Positions 2,708-19,943 of a stretch of DNA of 30,523 nt are shown here, piece by piece. Every line of letters starts with the position of its first letter. Within the stretch, counting starts at the first letter, position 1. The translations under genes were made by a program, and so were the position numbers. The stretch comes from a virus (lineage: Duplodnaviria; Heunggongvirae; Uroviricota; Caudoviricetes). The notes under the pieces were generated by a model. That model searched no databases, had not been told where the DNA came from, and worked only from the letters and a program-made list of their open reading frames with translations. The DNA lies in IMG/VR virus record IMGVR_UViG_2737471824_000004, positions 1 to 30,523 of that record; one strand, 5' to 3'.

Positions 2708-3262
2708 TCAATGGATATTAAGTAACTGCTCCACGGTCATATTTTTAATTACGTCCCTGTTCACAAGCGTCCATCCCTGTTTCTCCAGATAAAAGCGGAA
2801 GGTTTCCAGGGTACAGACTATTGCTCCATCAGGAACGGTTTCAGTGAATTTGATGTTGCCGTGTTCGTCGAAGTGAACAACCAGAGTACGGCCATCGCCA
2901 GGAATCATCTTGTCAGCGGACGGGGTGTTATTCTGGCGCAGCTCTGCCTCCATGCGGTCAAACTCGGCAATGTAGGCTTCTTTGAACGCGGCGGCTTTTT
3001 TGCCGGTGAACCCCATCACCAAAAAAACGAAGCCGTTTTTGGTGATCTGGTACATTGGGAGCTTGCGTCCTGTTGAGTCGGTGTATTCGCTCGACACAAA
3101 ATTGTGCTCAGTGAATTTTGCTGAACAGTCCAGATTGCGAATTTTATCCAACACTCGTTCGTGGCGTTTACCAAAGAACTCGGCGATCGCAACAGACGTA
3201 GTGACAGCGCGACCATTTTCGATGGTTACATCAGGGTGATAAATGGTAGGGGTAGTAGCCAT
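2708..3262 (-). CDS. Rha-family phage regulatory/antirepressor protein with C-terminal domain shared with the ORF6N protein at 17746..18309
   Basis: Rha motif (VAIAEFFGKRHERVLDKIRNL...YQITKNGFVFLVMGFTGKKAAAFKEAYIAEF). Start chosen at ATG 3262 with GGAGG RBS 8 nt upstream; the in-frame upstream extension to 3670 crosses a terminator and a leader whose paralogue is non-coding. Confidence 0.7.
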   Translation of the reverse strand: MATTPTIYHPDVTIENGRAVTTSVAIAEFFGKRHERVLDKIRNLDCSAKFTEHNFVSSEYTDSTGRKLPMYQITKNGFVFLVMGFTGKKAAAFKEAYIAEFDRMEAELRQNNTPSADKMIPGDGRTLVVHFDEHGNIKFTETVPDGAIVCTLETFRFYLEKQGWTLVNRDVIKNMTVEQLLNIH

Positions 3263-3428
3263 GATGGCAGCCTCCGCGATGAATTTAATTAACTCACCAC
3301 CAGAGGTGCTAATCTCATGGGTGGTGAGACGCACAGGGTTAGCACTACCGGTCATCACGGAACCCGGCCAGCCTTGCGGCTGCCCTGCACGCCTCACCAT
3401 AATGCGAATGTGGCTGTGCTTAACGCAT

Positions 3429-3451
3429 AAAAAAACCGCCTGAGCGCGGTT
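3429..3451 (-). terminator. intrinsic terminator in the Rha leader (stem AACCGC/GCGGTT plus U7 on the minus strand)
   Basis: Hairpin at 3434..3451 followed on the minus strand by a 7-T run (plus-strand A-run 3429..3435). Confidence 0.5.
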
Positions 3452-3511
3452 ATGCGCCGTGATTGACTTCGGGGTGCTAATCCCGGCACCCGTTTTATGA
3501 GGTGCAGGTGA

Positions 3512-3540
3512 ACTATAATTCCACCCGTACTGGTTTTCAA
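3512..3540 (-). promoter_or_regulatory. sigma70-like promoter of the Rha cassette (-35 TTGAAA, 17-nt spacer, -10 TATAGT on the minus strand)
   Basis: Minus-strand hexamers at 3535..3540 and 3512..3517; homologous in position and sequence to the promoter at 17469..17497. Confidence 0.4.
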
Positions 3541-3739
3541 TAGCTACATTCAACATTTTCTCTTGCCTTTCATCACCGAAGTGAACTTTATTGATGCGGT
3601 GCCTGGTGCCTCCAGGTGACGTTAACCAGTTAACAATTAACGCCGGATACAGAGAATCCACCCATAACACTGTTTTTAGTTTTAACTGTTCCGCGTGCGC
3701 TTAGCCGCATTCACCGCATCACAAAATTCACTTTAAAAA

Positions 3740-11261: not shown

Positions 11262-11617
11262 GCGAGATTAATTATCAGGAAGGGTATGAAACGGCGGGGC
11301 AAGCAAAACCAGTGGCATGGCGATATCGCTACGTGAAAAAAGGCGTTACGGACTTTCAGGAGAAGATGTGGGTTGGTGACTGGAAATATGTACCGACAAA
11401 AGAGGATTGTAACGACAGGCCGAACTATGAAATTCAGGCGTTATTCACTGCCCCGCCTGTGCCACTGACACCAGAAGGATTGATTAAAGCAGTGCGCTTC
11501 TATGAACAGGTTAAGCGTGAAAATCCGCCAGTCGAAACCGGAGCATGGAAAGACGCTGTTGACTGGGTGCTCAAAGAGGCTTGCCAGGCTGTAAACATTG
11601 GCATCAAAGGAGAGTGA
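11258..11617 (+). CDS. hypothetical protein (119 aa)
   Basis: ORF-track ORF; ends ...NIGIKGE, encoded by the 17-bp repeat that also ends the next gene. Confidence 0.45.
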   Translation: MSEINYQEGYETAGQAKPVAWRYRYVKKGVTDFQEKMWVGDWKYVPTKEDCNDRPNYEIQALFTAPPVPLTPEGLIKAVRFYEQVKRENPPVETGAWKDAVDWVLKEACQAVNIGIKGE

Positions 11618-11620
11618 GAG

Positions 11621-12111
11621 TGCAGATTTCACCGGTTACTCTTCGTGTTGCGAAGGCGTTTATATCCAGACATCACCGACACAATAAACCCCCGGTGGGG
11701 CATAAATTCAGCATTGGTCTGAGAAATGATGCCGGAGAATTGATAGGTGTGGCGACAGCCGGTCGACCTGTTGCACGACATTTGGATGATGGATTAACGC
11801 TTGAAGTAAATCGCACATGTACCACAGGAGAACGCAACGCTAACAGCGCGCTTTATGGTGCTGTCTGGCGGGCAGCAAAAGCTATGGGTTATCAACGTTG
11901 TATTACGTACACCCGGGCAGATGAATCAGGAGCATCTCTTCGCGCAGCTGGTTTTGTTCGTGTGAAAGAGCTTCCTCCAAGAAAAAGCTGGGCGGAATCA
12001 AGCGTCGCCCTGCGGAGTAAACGCGATCCAGTCGGAAACGGTGGTGTTCCTCGTGTGCTCTGGGAAATCAGGAGAATGAGTACCACTGGTATTCGCATCA
12101 AAGGAGAGTGA
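11621..12111 (+). CDS. hypothetical protein (163 aa), weak GNAT-acetyltransferase-like motifs
   Basis: GTG 11621 preceded by AGGAG inside the 17-bp repeat; segments ERNANSALYGAVWRAAKAMGYQRCITYT and SGASLRAAGF resemble GNAT motifs (weak). Confidence 0.4.
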
Positions 12112-13010: not shown

Positions 13011-13186
13011 TGCAGCGGGTGCTTGAGGCTATCTGTCTCAGGCATGAACACCAAAAGGCAGATAGAGAAAAGCCCCAGTTAACATTACGCGTCCGGCAAG
13101 ACGCTTAACATTAATCTGAGGCTCAATCTATGAACGGCAAATCTAGGTTAGCCTCTTACGTGCCGAAAGGCAAGGAGAAGCAGGCT

Positions 13187-13342
13187 ATGAAGCAGCAAAA
13201 GGCGATGTTAATCGCCCTGATCGTCATCTGTTTAACCGTCATAGTGACGGCACTGGTAACGAGGAAAGACCTCTGCGAGGTACGAATCCGAACCGGCCAG
13301 ACGGAGGTCGCTGTCTTCACAGCTTACGAACCTGAGGAGTAA
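13187..13342 (+). CDS. hokD: Hok/Gef-family type I toxin (51 aa; HokD/RelF-like)
   Basis: MKQQKAMLIALIVICLTVIVTALVTRKDLCEVRIRTGQTEVAVFTAYEPEE: transmembrane helix plus LCEVR...EVAVF signature; AAGGAG RBS; in-frame upstream extension from 13130 is a mok-like leader frame. Confidence 0.75.
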   Translation: MKQQKAMLIALIVICLTVIVTALVTRKDLCEVRIRTGQTEVAVFTAYEPEE

Positions 13343-13410
13343 GAGACTAGGCGGGGGAGAAATCCCTCGCCACCTCTGATGTGTCAGGCATCCTCAATGC
13401 ACCCGCGCTT

Positions 13411-13433
13411 AACCCGCTTCGGCGGGTTTTTCT
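13411..13433 (+). terminator. intrinsic terminator of the hok mRNA (AACCCGC-TTCG-GCGGGTT plus T-run)
   Basis: Direct reading. Confidence 0.6.
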
Positions 13434-13508
13434 AGCATCTATCTGGTTGACAAAGTTGATGTTAAATGGAAATATGGTTGACACCAAAACAACAAGGATA
13501 TTACGGTC

Positions 13509-14123
13509 ATGCAGAATTTATCTCAACAGTTGTTAGAAGCATATGACAAGGAGTGCCGCAAAGAGCTTTCGATCGCGTTAGCACAGGCTTATCTTCATTC
13601 GCATATGAAGGCAAAAGAGTTTGGTTCTTTTTGGGCTCAAGCACAGTCATATTTGCGCTGGTTTTATGCCGATGCATTGCTTGAGAATGCGGCTAAGCGT
13701 GTGGGGCTGGATTTTGAAGTCGGTAGCAATGCTGCTAAAAATTGTAAACACATTGCGATTCACTCGAACAACTGGAAAATGACGGCACATCATTTATCGG
13801 GTAATGCGCCACTTCCTAAGCAGGCATTGTATAGAGCTGTTTACGCTAATCAAAATTATGAATTGAATTTTGGGGATGAAAATGCCGACTCCCTGGATGG
13901 GAGAGCGTCTGGTGGACATGTTTATATGTTACATGATGGCAGTAATCAGCACTTGTCCAAACTGAATTTAACTGTTCCTTCTTCGGATAATTACGGGATT
14001 CTTTATACTGAGTCTTTACCAATTATGACGATGGTAGAAGTTGAAGCAGAAAATGTGGATTCTGAGATTGAAGATAAAATCAAGATTCTTACCGAACAAA
14101 TAATTAAATCACAGCAATCATGA
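13509..14123 (+). CDS. hypothetical protein (204 aa), first gene of a two-gene low-GC module
   Basis: ATG 13509 with AAGGA RBS; stop overlaps the downstream start (ATGA); two TGGTTGACA boxes upstream (13445..13452, 13477..13484). Confidence 0.55.
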   Translation: MQNLSQQLLEAYDKECRKELSIALAQAYLHSHMKAKEFGSFWAQAQSYLRWFYADALLENAAKRVGLDFEVGSNAAKNCKHIAIHSNNWKMTAHHLSGNAPLPKQALYRAVYANQNYELNFGDENADSLDGRASGGHVYMLHDGSNQHLSKLNLTVPSSDNYGILYTESLPIMTMVEVEAENVDSEIEDKIKILTEQIIKSQQS

Positions 14124-15265
14124 GCATGAATATCGCACAAACACCATTTACTGATAAATCGTTTAATCCTCGTCGCCTTGAGGAGGCAAGAGAGGCAAAA
14201 GGGTTGACGATGGCTGAACTTGCCAGAGTGCTCAATATTTCAAGACAAGCTATTTCGTCATTTGAGAAGGGGTTGAAGTCTCCCTCTGCTGATACACTTT
14301 CTGCAATAGCCAAGGTGTTAGGATTTCCAGAACGATTTTTCTTAGCCTCCAGTGCTTCTCCATCTCTGGAGGGGGCGATTCATTTTAGAAGTCGTTCAAC
14401 TGCGACCAAAAAGGCTCGAGTTACAGGGAAAACACGTGGGCGTTGGGCGGCATTAATATTGGATGAATGTCTAAAATATGCTCAATTACCAGATGTGGTT
14501 CTGCCTGAATTCGATATTATTGATTTTGAGGTTCTGTCTCTATCTGATATTGAGGATATGTCCACCCAATTAAGGCGTTTTTGGGGGTTAGGTGATGGTC
14601 CAATACTCAATTTAACTAGACTTGTTGAAAATAAAGGAATCGTGGTTTCTCATTTACCTTCTGGTGAGAAAGTTGATGCCTTTTCGTTCTGGCATAATGG
14701 GCGGCCTTTAATTATGTTAGATAGCTCGAAGACGGCTGTTCGCATGCGATTTAGTCTTGCTCATGAACTTGGCCATTTAATTATGCATAGGGCAGTGGAG
14801 GATGACTACCTGAATGATAAAGAATTATTCGACCTGGTGGAGTTGCAGGCCGATTATTTTGCCTCCAGCTTTTTAATGCCAGCCACGACTTTCGGGCGTG
14901 AATTTTATAGTCCAAATTTATCAGCGTTAGAACGATTAAAACTACGTTGGATTACATCTATCGGTAGTATTGCCATGAGGAGTCATAGCCTTAAGTTAAT
15001 CAGCGATAATCAGAAAAGCTATATATTTAAGCAATTAGCGCCATTCCATCGTAGGGAGCCGTTAGATGATGCAATCCCAAAAGAAGAGCCTGAGTTACTT
15101 AATAAGTTACTTTTACTTCTTGATAAGCATTCAATCATAAAGGTAACTGAGTTAACTGATATCTTTGCTCTTCCCTTAAATGAGTTATCTGCAATTACAC
15201 GATTTAAAGAATCAGATATGATTCATTCTGACAATGTTATTTCATTTACCATAAAACAAAAATAA
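14120..15265 (+). CDS. XRE-family HTH fused to ImmA/IrrE-type zinc metallopeptidase (COG2856-like), 381 aa with C-terminal extension
   Basis: HTH LTMAELARVLNISRQAISSFEKG; HEXXH motif LAHELGHLIMH. Confidence 0.75.
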   Translation: MSMNIAQTPFTDKSFNPRRLEEAREAKGLTMAELARVLNISRQAISSFEKGLKSPSADTLSAIAKVLGFPERFFLASSASPSLEGAIHFRSRSTATKKARVTGKTRGRWAALILDECLKYAQLPDVVLPEFDIIDFEVLSLSDIEDMSTQLRRFWGLGDGPILNLTRLVENKGIVVSHLPSGEKVDAFSFWHNGRPLIMLDSSKTAVRMRFSLAHELGHLIMHRAVEDDYLNDKELFDLVELQADYFASSFLMPATTFGREFYSPNLSALERLKLRWITSIGSIAMRSHSLKLISDNQKSYIFKQLAPFHRREPLDDAIPKEEPELLNKLLLLLDKHSIIKVTELTDIFALPLNELSAITRFKESDMIHSDNVISFTIKQK

Positions 15266-15276
15266 TTCTCATTCAT

Positions 15277-15300
15277 ACCCGCCTCGGCGGGTTTTTGTTT
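15277..15300 (+). terminator. intrinsic terminator (ACCCGCC-TC-GGCGGGT plus T-run)
   Basis: Direct reading. Confidence 0.6.
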
Positions 15301-15371
15301 TACGTATTCTGGTTTACAATCCACAGGCCAGCCTGAACAACTGGCACCTGCTGCGCCAGCAGAGACAACCG

Positions 15372-15650
15372 ATGGCGCACGATACCAAATTATACAATTC
15401 TGATGATTCTGCCGTCTTTGCCAGCAGGCGCGGACGGTGTTTTCACGCATTCAAATCTGACTGGTACCAGCATCCCCCATGCACTGAAGAACAGGCCGAG
15501 TGGCTAATTCAGTGCTACCGCAGACACGGATACGAGATTAAGAAAGCCCTCAGCCTCGATTATCGTCACTGGATAATCTCCGTCAGGCTTCCTTACTCTG
15601 AACGCCCACCGCGTCCGTCCCGCACATTCCAGCAACGCATCTGGAGGTAA
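15372..15650 (+). CDS. hypothetical protein (92 aa), just upstream of the DUF968 gene
   Basis: ORF-track ORF; weak RBS. Confidence 0.35.
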   Translation: MAHDTKLYNSDDSAVFASRRGRCFHAFKSDWYQHPPCTEEQAEWLIQCYRRHGYEIKKALSLDYRHWIISVRLPYSERPPRPSRTFQQRIWR

Positions 15651-17745: not shown

Positions 17746-18309
17746 ATGACAACTCAAATCTCTGTTGAAACTCTCTCCCCGATCACCCATAACCAGATTC
17801 CTGTTATTACCACTGAACTTTTGGCGCAGCTTTATGGCACCGAAATTCTGAATATCCAGGTTAACTTCACCAGAAACAAAGAGCGTTTTGTCGCAGGAAA
17901 GCACTTTTTTAAAGCAGCGGGTGAGGAATTAAAAAAATTGCGACTTACTTTAAGTAAGTCACAAAATCCCATCTCTCCCAAAACCCGCTTCCTCATCCTA
18001 TGGACAGAACGCGGAGCTGCCCGCCACGCAAAAATGCTGGAAACAGATCAGGCGTGGGAAGTATTCGAAAAACTGGAAGACTGTTATTTCAGCCAGAAAC
18101 AGCCACCAGCAACACAAAACTCCCCCACCGAAAATGATGGATGCGCATTACTGATCCACTTCGATAAACACGGTCAGGTCGACTTCACGGAAAAAGTACC
18201 CGCCGATGCGATGGTATGCACTCTGGAACGGTTCAAATTTTATCTGGAACAACGCGGCTGGATCGTTGCCAGTAAAGAGCAACTGGTGGAACGACTGATG
18301 CGACTTTAA
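17746..18309 (+). CDS. ORF6N/KilA-N-type antirepressor-like protein with the same C-terminal domain as the Rha protein (187 aa)
   Basis: N-terminal ITTELLAQLYGTE...NKERFVAGKHFF...LWTERGAARHAKML resembles the ORF6N domain; C-terminus LLIHFDKHGQVDFTEKVPADAMVCTLERFKFYLEQRGW parallels the Rha C-terminus; RBS GAGGG. Confidence 0.65.
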   Translation: MTTQISVETLSPITHNQIPVITTELLAQLYGTEILNIQVNFTRNKERFVAGKHFFKAAGEELKKLRLTLSKSQNPISPKTRFLILWTERGAARHAKMLETDQAWEVFEKLEDCYFSQKQPPATQNSPTENDGCALLIHFDKHGQVDFTEKVPADAMVCTLERFKFYLEQRGWIVASKEQLVERLMRL

Positions 18310-18881: not shown

Positions 18882-19943
18882 ATGGCTAATACTGTAAAAA
18901 TATCCAGTTGTGAGTTAATCAACGCTGATTGCCTGGAATTTATCCAGACCTTACCGGAAAACTCTGTCGATCTGATAGTCACAGACCCACCATACTTTAA
19001 AGTGAAGCCAGATGGCTGGGATAACCAGTGGAAGGGCGATGATGATTACCTGAAATGGCTGGATCAGTGTCTGGCGCAGTTCTGGCGGGTGTTAAAACCT
19101 GCCGGAAGCCTTTACCTGTTCTGCGGTCATCGTCTGGCATCTGATATCGAAATCATGATGCGTGAACGCTTTAATGTGCTGAACCACATTATCTGGGCGA
19201 AGCCGTCCGGACGTTGGAATGGGTGTAATAAAGAAAGTCTGCGCGCATATTTTCCTGCCACAGAGCGCGTTCTGTTTGCTGAACATTACCAGGGGCCATA
19301 TCGCGGCAAAAGTGACGGCTATGCAGCAAAAGAAAGGAAACTCAAACAGCACATAATGGCACCGCTGATATCGTATTTCAGGGATGCTCGTGCCGAACTG
19401 GGTATAACGGCAAAACAAATTGCCGAAGCCACAGGTAAGAAAAATATGGTTTCCCACTGGTTTGGTGCCAGTCAGTGGCAGTTGCCGAATGAGGCTGACT
19501 ACCGGAAGTTACAGGCACTGTTTTCCCGTATAGCGGCAGAGAAGTTTCAGGAACAACAACTGGAACAACCACACCACCAGTTGGTGGCATCTTATGATTC
19601 ACTGAATCGCAAATATTCTGAATTGCTGGATGAGTTTAAATCTCTCCGGCGCTGGTTCTCCGTATCAGTCTCCGTGCCTTATACCGATGTCTGGATGCAT
19701 AAACCCGTTCAGTTCTACCCGGGCAAACATCCGTGTGAGAAACCGGCGGATATGCTCAGGCAAATAATCAATGCCAGTAGTCGACCTGGCGATCTGGTTG
19801 CTGATTTCTTTATGGGATCCGGTTCCACAATAAAAGCAGCAATGGCGCTGGGGCGTCGGGCATTAGGTGTTGAGCTTGAGACAGAACGGTTCAATAAGAC
19901 CATTCAGGAAATCAGTATGTTATCAGCAAATACAATTTTGTGA
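18882..19943 (+). CDS. DNA methyltransferase, N6-adenine/N4-cytosine family (beta class; 353 aa)
   Basis: Motif IV DPPY (IVTDPPYF) before motif I FxGSGS (FFMGSGSTIKAA); no adjacent restriction gene. Confidence 0.8.
   Translation: MANTVKISSCELINADCLEFIQTLPENSVDLIVTDPPYFKVKPDGWDNQWKGDDDYLKWLDQCLAQFWRVLKPAGSLYLFCGHRLASDIEIMMRERFNVLNHIIWAKPSGRWNGCNKESLRAYFPATERVLFAEHYQGPYRGKSDGYAAKERKLKQHIMAPLISYFRDARAELGITAKQIAEATGKKNMVSHWFGASQWQLPNEADYRKLQALFSRIAAEKFQEQQLEQPHHQLVASYDSLNRKYSELLDEFKSLRRWFSVSVSVPYTDVWMHKPVQFYPGKHPCEKPADMLRQIINASSRPGDLVADFFMGSGSTIKAAMALGRRALGVELETERFNKTIQEISMLSANTIL

Follow-up and report, generated by a model that had tools for sequence, protein, structure and literature searches.

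RosmerTA is a recognized anti-phage system formed by the toxin RmrT and the antitoxin RmrA (Millman et al. 2022, 10.1101/2022.05.11.491447). The toxicity of RmrT and its neutralization by RmrA were shown in Rosmer subfamilies other than the one described here (10.1101/2022.05.11.491447, PMC10440598, PMC4671572, PMC12795458), and phage protection was demonstrated for the OLC-716 system and for that of Gordonia phage Kita (10.1101/2022.05.11.491447, PMC10440598). RmrA is a hub antitoxin with many toxin partners (Ernits et al., PMC10440598). Here, we analyzed two adjacent genes, designated rmrT and rmrA, in a 30,523-nucleotide stretch of Caudoviricetes DNA (IMG/VR record IMGVR_UViG_2737471824_000004), which is referred to in its full length as the window. 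We propose, with a probability of about 0.78, that these genes form a RosmerTA toxin-antitoxin pair that would be carried as autonomously expressed cargo (a moron) by a lambdoid Qin/Tritos-like prophage. The two proteins belong to the known RmrT and RmrA families; the toxicity, phage defense, and target of this subfamily are predictions here, and we present as new the paired TGGTTGACA boxes, as a probable operator, and an N-x-D-L-F motif in the toxin family.

Related pairs have been studied in several hosts. In Vibrio mimicus, the toxin of the Vmi480/Vmi470 pair is lethal when produced alone and is rescued by co-expression of the antitoxin, whose gene was not deletable (PMC4671572). An rmrA deletion of OLC-716 was not obtainable by transformation (10.1101/2022.05.11.491447). 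In Escherichia coli E101, clpP is essential owing to a prophage toxin-antitoxin pair (Rousset et al., 10.1101/2020.05.25.114553), composed of a domain-less toxin and a downstream antidote, which share 33% and 42% identity with their Vibrio counterparts (10.1101/2020.05.25.114553); this work was cited by Millman et al. as a precedent for the Zn-peptidase configuration (10.1101/2022.05.11.491447). In Streptococcus pneumoniae, the target of the Rosmer toxin RipA (Spr1630) is the sliding clamp DnaN: mutations that suppress its effect are concentrated in the hydrophobic pocket of the clamp, and the toxin makes clpX essential (PMC12795458).

Identity, conservation, and genomic slot of the module

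The genes of the module, the domains of RmrA, and the borders have the following coordinates in the window.

13411..13433, plus strand: hok terminator (left border), with a stem at 13411-13427 and a T-run to 13431; it belongs to the hok backbone and lies outside the module.
13509..14123, plus strand: rmrT, encoding a 204-residue putative toxin of RmrT family PDLC03933.
14120..15265, plus strand: rmrA, encoding a 381-residue antitoxin/regulator.
14177..14338, plus strand: XRE-type helix-turn-helix (HTH) of RmrA, residues 20-73 (Pfam HTH_3, E = 2.4e-16).
14627..14980, plus strand: M78 (ImmA/IrrE, COG2856) zinc-peptidase domain of RmrA, residues 170-287 (Pfam PF06114 Peptidase_M78, E = 9.7e-19).
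14990..15262, plus strand: C-terminal domain of RmrA, residues 291-381, within the RmrA profiles and the least conserved part of the protein.
15277..15300, plus strand: module-closing intrinsic terminator, a scanner match with a hairpin at 15277..15292, a 6-bp stem containing 5 GC pairs, and a T-run.

RmrA matched the PADLOC model PDLC03947 with an E value of 5.5e-102, residues 11-380 of the protein aligning with positions 7-381 of the 383-position profile. The HEXXH motif of the peptidase domain is H215-E-L-G-H219 (nucleotides 14762-14776), and residues H215, E216, H219, and E241 did not vary among six RmrA proteins with identities as low as 31%. Secondary PADLOC matches were of the domain level only and involved capP (E = 1.5e-21) and capH (E = 1.7e-10). 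Identity to relatives amounted to 59-73% in the C-terminal domain versus 76-86% in the M78 domain, and the former is a candidate for the toxin-specific region of the antitoxin.

RmrT matched PADLOC PDLC03933 with an E value of 7.5e-10 over residues 47-161 only. All 46 of the aligned toxin relatives matched this model, with a best E value of 1.8e-53, and the RmrT assignment is therefore solid at the family level. PHROG 35814 matched RmrT over its full length. An exhaustive search based on profile hidden Markov models retrieved 78 representative relatives of the toxin, mostly of ~200-220 residues; word-index searches for homologues reach only ~10-13 toxin clusters, and a locus search seeded with one alignment recovered no relative in species-representative genomes. 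RmrT is predicted to be a soluble, acidic protein (isoelectric point of 5.7) devoid of any transmembrane segment.

The pairing of the two genes was conserved. Every toxin homologue at 64-74% identity has directly downstream an overlapping gene for a 381-residue HTH-M78 protein, in settings that differ: the pair is located directly after a CI (S24) repressor gene in a Yersinia prophage (loci L002 and L003), behind an Ea22-like gene in a different lambdoid element (L005), and after a primase gene (L006). In locus L008, a toxin of only 28% identity is followed by a gene for a 377-residue HTH-M78 protein that is 36% identical to RmrA. The pair was found in at least four different phage contexts in all, and modules of the window type are also carried by an Enterococcus phage and by a Lacticaseibacillus phage. 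In a sample of 80 RmrA loci that was drawn from species-representative genomes and covers many phyla, an abutting upstream open reading frame (ORF) on the same strand was present at 74, with a median size of ~220 residues; 34 of these partners (plus 3 weak matches) belong to the toxin family of the window, 19 to the OLC-716 family, and the remainder to small groups. The toxin family of the module is the commonest in this sample. RosmerTA is widespread; 548 of the 600 matches to the search pattern in species-representative genomes encode an RmrA relative. The features that define RosmerTA at the sequence level were all found: an HTH plus M78 HEXXH antitoxin matching RmrA, an adjacent co-directional gene of the RmrT family, and maintenance of the pairing.

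These results support an earlier reading of the stretch made from its letters, hereafter the original prediction, which did not give the name RosmerTA. Its two ORFs and their overlap were recovered exactly, the stop codon of rmrT overlapping the start codon of rmrA by 4 nucleotides (ATGA, 14120-14123). Both of the strong terminators that it placed around the module were borne out by folding (hok terminator, -14.1 kcal/mol, z = -3.25, with 1 of 200 shuffles as good; closing terminator, -12.1 kcal/mol, z = -2.95), the former escaping a simple consensus scanner. The lower G+C content that it reported was found as well, with values of 0.38-0.44 within the module versus 0.49-0.57 outside. It had put forward the 204-residue protein as a candidate effector, which agrees with the family-level placement of this protein in the catalogued toxin class RmrT, and the HTH-COG2856 fusion as a sensor/regulator partner of a toxin-like effector, which agrees with its assignment by PADLOC to the antitoxin/regulator class RmrA. 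The HTH and the metallopeptidase core of the architecture that it described were recovered by Pfam; its "C-terminal extension" is instead a normal part of the family, since the PADLOC RmrA models match from end to end. The co-occurrence that it proposed to check extends down to 28% and 36% identity, to unrelated phage contexts, and to distant loci.

A second in-frame ATG of rmrA, at position 14126, is used by many public gene calls, leading to a 379-residue product and to a 2-nucleotide gap in place of the overlap. The 379-residue "variant" was rejected as a separate protein, since it results from a call of this gene at the later ATG. As a result of these split start calls (381 and 379 residues), databases hold two "different" proteins for one rmrA gene. 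In the distant RosmerTA locus L008 (4482-5116), a gene coding for at least 1442 residues, with AAA_11/AAA_12 helicase, DUF559, and MTES_1575 domains, starts 2.2 kb downstream, and the neighborhood resembles a defense island.

The gene order in the Qin prophage of E. coli K-12 is hokD-rem-ydfU. Homology between the window and K-12 Qin runs through the hok terminator, breaks right after the T-run, and resumes at ~15310-15320; homology to E. coli LF82 also runs through the hok hairpin. The hok-ydfU interval of the window contains no rem, and the positions at which K-12 homology stops and resumes indicate that the module replaces this gene. The original prediction, which placed only rem in the K-12 interval and regarded the module as an inserted moron, was right about rem and about a cargo slot, the module taking the place of rem rather than being inserted beside it. 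The interval extending from the hok terminator to a 92-codon ORF (13433-15320) is a variable cargo slot, which is filled by RosmerTA in the window and in Tritos, by a 131-residue hypothetical ORF and a mobile-element fragment in vB_EcoS-689R5, and by a rem-sized ORF in HannyBb.

Of 5426 complete E. coli genomes, 41 contained the full module, in every case with at least 99% identity. These include LF82, a Crohn's-associated strain that carries the module in prophage Tritos with 100% protein identity. RNA sequencing of the LF82 lysogen revealed transcription of LF82_281 (hypothetical) 30-fold and of LF82_280 (ImmA/IrrE) 14-fold above the prophage background (Misson et al., PMC9928086). Thus, the 204-residue gene is both conserved with rmrA and expressed (PMC9928086), two properties whose absence would have spoken against the original prediction. 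The proteins of the pair are annotated as "hypothetical protein" and "helix-turn-helix domain-containing protein" in the 41 genomes, and we propose that they be renamed RmrT and RmrA. Tritos, of which a plaque was isolated once, on MG1655 hsdR- (Misson et al., PMC9928086), would provide a convenient E. coli model, in which the pair is transcribed in a lysogen.

The immediate neighbors of the module are hok, the 92-codon ORF, and a DUF968 gene. Immediately upstream, a hok/mok-type type I toxin locus (13130-13433; Pfam HOK_GEF, E = 3e-23) ends with its own terminator, so that two toxin systems lie side by side; the identical hokD of LF82 is the most transcribed prophage gene, 3792-fold above background (PMC9928086). 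In LF82 (L001, 9712-11046), in L113 (1-1260), and in some other genomes, a gene encoding an FRG-domain protein is located just upstream of hok on the opposite strand. The window has different genes at this place than LF82, indicating that the left neighborhood of hok is also mosaic. On the other side, the 92-codon ORF (15372-15650; PHROG 1212, no Pfam match) is conserved directly upstream of ydfU and its stop codon is located just before the GTG start of that gene. In one phage record, it bears the label "toxin to Rem." The identification of this ORF as Rem was rejected, since it is a conserved backbone gene with homologous unannotated K-12 DNA between rem and ydfU. Further features of the window are as follows; tRNA genes were searched in the window and none was found.

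2708-3670, minus strand: Rha/Ash-type antirepressor, an accessory gene.
11581-12111: weak Mom-like match (E = 1.2e-4, below the cut-off).
17746-18309: ORF6N-domain protein, an accessory gene.
18882-19943: N6/N4 DNA methylase, an accessory gene.

Promoter and probable operator boxes

The region between the hok terminator and rmrT contains the following elements.

13444..13452, plus strand: box 1, TGGTTGACA, which contains a perfect -35 hexamer (TTGACA, 13447-13452) and is the probable first half of the RmrA operator.
13467..13475, plus strand: putative extended -10 read from the sequence, with TG at 13467-13468, one base, and AAATAT at 13470-13475, 17 bp after the -35.
13475..13483, plus strand: box 2, TGGTTGACA, 31 bp downstream of box 1, the probable second operator site.
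13494..13498, plus strand: Shine-Dalgarno-like AAGGA read from the sequence, 10 nucleotides before the start codon of rmrT.

The TGGTTGACA sequence occurs in two exact copies only in the 30.5-kb window, for a chance expectation, by our own estimate, of ~0.23 exact copies of a 9-mer on both strands. Alignment of the upstream regions of five diverged modules with unrelated flanks revealed that both boxes are invariant and that the TG and the A-rich -10 hexamer are kept. The same box with the same 31-bp spacing was present in locus L008, along with TAAAAT at the equivalent -10 distance, although RmrA is only 36% identical there. The promoter-like boxes of the original prediction are both real, but only box 1 can act as a -35: box 2 is too near the start codon of rmrT (13509) for a -35 of this gene, overlaps the presumed transcription start along with the final base of the -10, and is more likely to be an operator. 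The extended -10 was not called by a generic scanner because the -10 matches the consensus at only 3 of 6 positions.

Pairs of GGTTGACA boxes, separated by 30-34 bp, precede genes for RmrA homologues in unrelated bacteria, some of which have other toxin families. Exact or near-exact pairs occur in loci L061 (1804 and 1838) and L062 (1725 and 1756), as well as in L037, L060, L063, L019, and L023, and the toxin falls outside the family of the window in five of these seven loci. Since the pairs precede RmrA genes associated with other toxin families, the boxes follow the antitoxin and not the toxin. When the DNA upstream of distant family members was searched generically for direct repeats of 8-10 nucleotides, the outcome was largely negative, indicating that the box pair is a feature of a subset of RmrA lineages and not of all of them; the published DNA upstream of OLC-716 contains no TGGTTGACA box. 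Together, these comparisons suggest that the two TGGTTGACA boxes are the probable operator for autorepression by RmrA, an arrangement that would make the supply of toxin dependent upon an intact RmrA.

A copy of the box with one mismatch, TGGTTTACA, is located at 15310-15318, just past the module terminator, where the module meets the backbone on the right. This copy may be fortuitous, serve as a -35 for the 92-codon ORF, or be a third RmrA site.

Proposed mode of action and candidate target of the toxin

In the model that we propose, the promoter with the perfect -35 and the extended -10 would drive transcription of rmrT-rmrA, and the HTH of RmrA would bind both TGGTTGACA boxes, which cover the -35 and the start site, leading to autorepression. 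RmrT would be kept inactive by RmrA, a function for which related Rosmer systems need ClpX or ClpP. RmrT would be freed when another phage infects the cell or when RmrA no longer functions, and would then stop growth and abort the infection. By analogy with ImmA/ImmR, IrrE/DdrO, and CapP/CapH, the M78 peptidase domain would probably be the part that responds to the signal. The target of RmrT may be the beta sliding clamp, contacted via the N-x-D-L-F motif, as genetically shown for pneumococcal RipA.

The sliding clamp is our preferred guess for the target, although less likely than not. The window version of the motif is located as follows.

13854..13871, plus strand: codons of N116-Y-E-L-N-F121, a candidate beta-clamp-binding motif.

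In the toxin family, the motif stands at the end of helix 2, with N in 66, D in 39, L in 56, and F in 61 of the 78 members, and with a hydrophobic residue or Pro at position 2, giving the consensus N-[LPY]-D-L-F. It is followed by an acidic loop of low confidence, in which the predicted local distance difference test (pLDDT) score falls to 57 (residues 121-130). At the aligned position, the sister OLC-716-type family has Q (14 of 21 members), L, D or E, L, and F; judged from the sequences, this Q-L-[DE]-L-F reads as a canonical clamp-binding pentapeptide. The consensus for clamp binding is reportedly QL[SD]LF or QLxLxL, and the OLC-716 toxin itself contains QLKLDL. It is possible, albeit speculative, that the dominant RmrT family and the sister family are sliding-clamp poisons that dock on DnaN and are kept in check by RmrA with ClpXP. 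If so, RosmerTA defense would work by replication-fork arrest, and a SocB-like strategy would have been invented independently.

For comparison with RipA, its sequence was recovered from metagenome contigs via a ripA primer printed in the supplement of PMC12795458; this primer was not found in viral contigs. The identity of the recovered protein was confirmed by matches to the NCBIfam spr1630 family (219 bits) and to PADLOC PDLC03931. RipA starts with MLNQDLFD, in which the DLF is part of N3-Q-D-L-F7, and a Streptococcus constellatus homologue keeps TDLFD.

Several observations weigh against the sliding clamp as the target. The motif of the window toxin, NYELNF, carries a one-residue insertion. 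RipA reads N-T-[LP]-Y-L at the position that is homologous to the N-x-D-L-F motif, and its own DLF is N-terminal rather than internal; comparison of the profiles of the two families gave a nonsignificant E value of 0.1, and no homology of the window toxin family to RipA was detected. The L and F at the end of the helix could simply be core residues, and a loose form of the motif appeared somewhere in 6% of shuffled toxin sequences.

A nuclease is a weaker candidate. In an AlphaFold2 model based on a 46-sequence alignment (pLDDT of 88, predicted template modeling score of 0.78; a shallow 9-sequence alignment gave an unusable model with a pLDDT of 40), RmrT is predicted to have an alpha-beta-beta-beta-alpha-beta core, preceded by a long helical hairpin at the N terminus and followed by a helix at the C terminus. 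Foldseek searches with this model against PDB and BFVD returned nothing significant, the weak lists being enriched in the same fold. RmrT might be imagined as a nuclease of the PD-(D/E)xK fold, whose lethality would come from cleavage of DNA or RNA rather than from clamp binding, which we consider doubtful. The canonical form of such an enzyme needs a D where strand 2 begins and (D/E)xK in strand 3; these catalytic residues are missing from RmrT, and a canonical PD-(D/E)xK nuclease was rejected. The operator pair and the sliding-clamp proposal provide two mechanistic leads, the former for the autoregulation of the module and the latter for tying the Rosmer toxins of E. coli, by a clamp-like motif, to the DnaN/ClpX biology of S. 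pneumoniae.

Alternative readings of the module and comparison with described systems

The assignment of the pair to RosmerTA has to be weighed against a plain addiction module, which would stabilize the prophage or its cargo region by post-segregational killing and have no role in phage defense. The module does adjoin another addiction-type locus, hok, Vmi480/Vmi470 (PMC4671572) and RipAB (PMC12795458) behave as classical toxin-antitoxin systems, and RipAB also has a physiological role in the induction of competence that is unrelated to phage (PMC12795458). However, the OLC-716 system, which has a homologous RmrA, protects E. coli from phages (10.1101/2022.05.11.491447), as does the Kita system (PMC10440598). 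The pair of locus L008 is near the large helicase-nuclease gene. In the Yersinia relative, the pair comes right after the gene for the CI-type repressor, the place at which phage lambda carries its rexAB exclusion genes. On balance, an addiction module without a defense function appears unlikely. The HTH-peptidase protein might also be a prophage regulator, either an ImmR/ImmA- or IrrE/DdrO-like switch or a remnant repressor, the 204-residue gene being an unrelated passenger. Its domains are indeed those of ImmR plus ImmA, its nearest solved relatives are ImmR (7t8i), CapP (7t5t), IrrE (3dte), and DdrO, and its PHROG family is labeled "transcriptional regulator." This reading is very improbable, since the immunity and replication region of the window is several kb upstream, a separate S24 CI repressor stands beside the pair in the Yersinia prophage, the pair occupies four different places in phage genomes, always with the 204-residue gene, an upstream partner gene is found at most of the distant loci, and the conserved operator boxes precede the pair itself. 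The remnant repressor that would have undermined the original prediction therefore finds no place here.

Other observations temper the RosmerTA assignment. No similarity between the toxins of the window and OLC-716 was detected by pairwise comparison or by comparison of an alignment with the single sequence, and profile-profile comparison of the two families was marginal (E of ~4e-4, probability of 33-36%). RmrT toxins are heterogeneous, the Kita toxin depolarizing membranes (PMC10440598), unlike what is expected of the window RmrT, which lacks a transmembrane segment. Finally, both the occupancy of the boxes by RmrA and a proteolytic step are inferred.

ImmR/ImmA of ICEBs1, DdrO/IrrE of Deinococcus, and CapH/CapP share with the window module an XRE HTH repressor and a stress-responsive M78 zinc peptidase. 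In these systems, the repressor and the protease are separate proteins that control the induction of the element or an effector operon, whereas the two are fused in the window RmrA, which would also neutralize a toxin if the pair is a RosmerTA. An element regulator of the ImmR/ImmA type was rejected, since the protein is fused and the module is located between hok and ydfU, away from the immunity region. CapH/CapP, two genes located beside a CBASS operon, was also rejected: there were domain-level matches only, and genes of CBASS or of an integrative and conjugative element were not adjacent.

SocA is an adaptor, in contrast to the HTH-peptidase RmrA of the window. The SocA/SocB system of Caulobacter crescentus, in which the toxin binds the clamp and ClpXP is essential, was used for comparison by the authors of the RipAB study (PMC12795458) and is an analogy only, any link of SocB to the window toxin being hypothetical.

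The Vmi480/Vmi470 pair has the same organization as the window module, with a domain-less toxin of ~200 residues followed by an HTH plus Zn-peptidase antitoxin of 360-380 residues. The protein accessions of this pair and of the E101 pair are unlike those of the window module. Residue 46 is T in the OLC-716 toxin and Q in the window toxin, and the E101 suppressor is T46S. This fits the OLC-716 residue, and the Vibrio and E101 pairs therefore probably belong to the OLC-716-type toxin family and not to the window type. If E101 and OLC-716 are of the same type, a verified RosmerTA would be linked to ClpP dependence.

RipAB of S. pneumoniae is similar to the window module in that the toxin comes first, with a size of ~200-240 residues, and in that RipB is a full-length homologue of the window RmrA (28% identity, E = 4e-36); the DLF of RipA resembles the N-x-D-L-F of the window toxin family. 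The window RmrA matched the NCBIfam spr1629 model (E = 4.8e-55, 187 bits) and the window toxin gave no match to the spr1630 model. With equivalog cut-offs of 335 bits for the antitoxin and 125 bits for the toxin (NCBIfam NF052239, NF052238), the module was not retained as a RipAB equivalog; the recovered RipB (466 bits) and RipA (219 bits) served as positive controls.

A close parallel is the verified OLC-716 RosmerTA. It differs from the window module by the toxin (PDLC03935 versus PDLC03933) and by the class of RmrA (PDLC03949 versus PDLC03947). Both have an E. coli host and two co-directional genes with the toxin first, and their RmrA proteins share the HTH, M78, and C-terminal architecture, are 31% identical over 354 residues (E = 4e-41), and match PADLOC RmrA over the full length.

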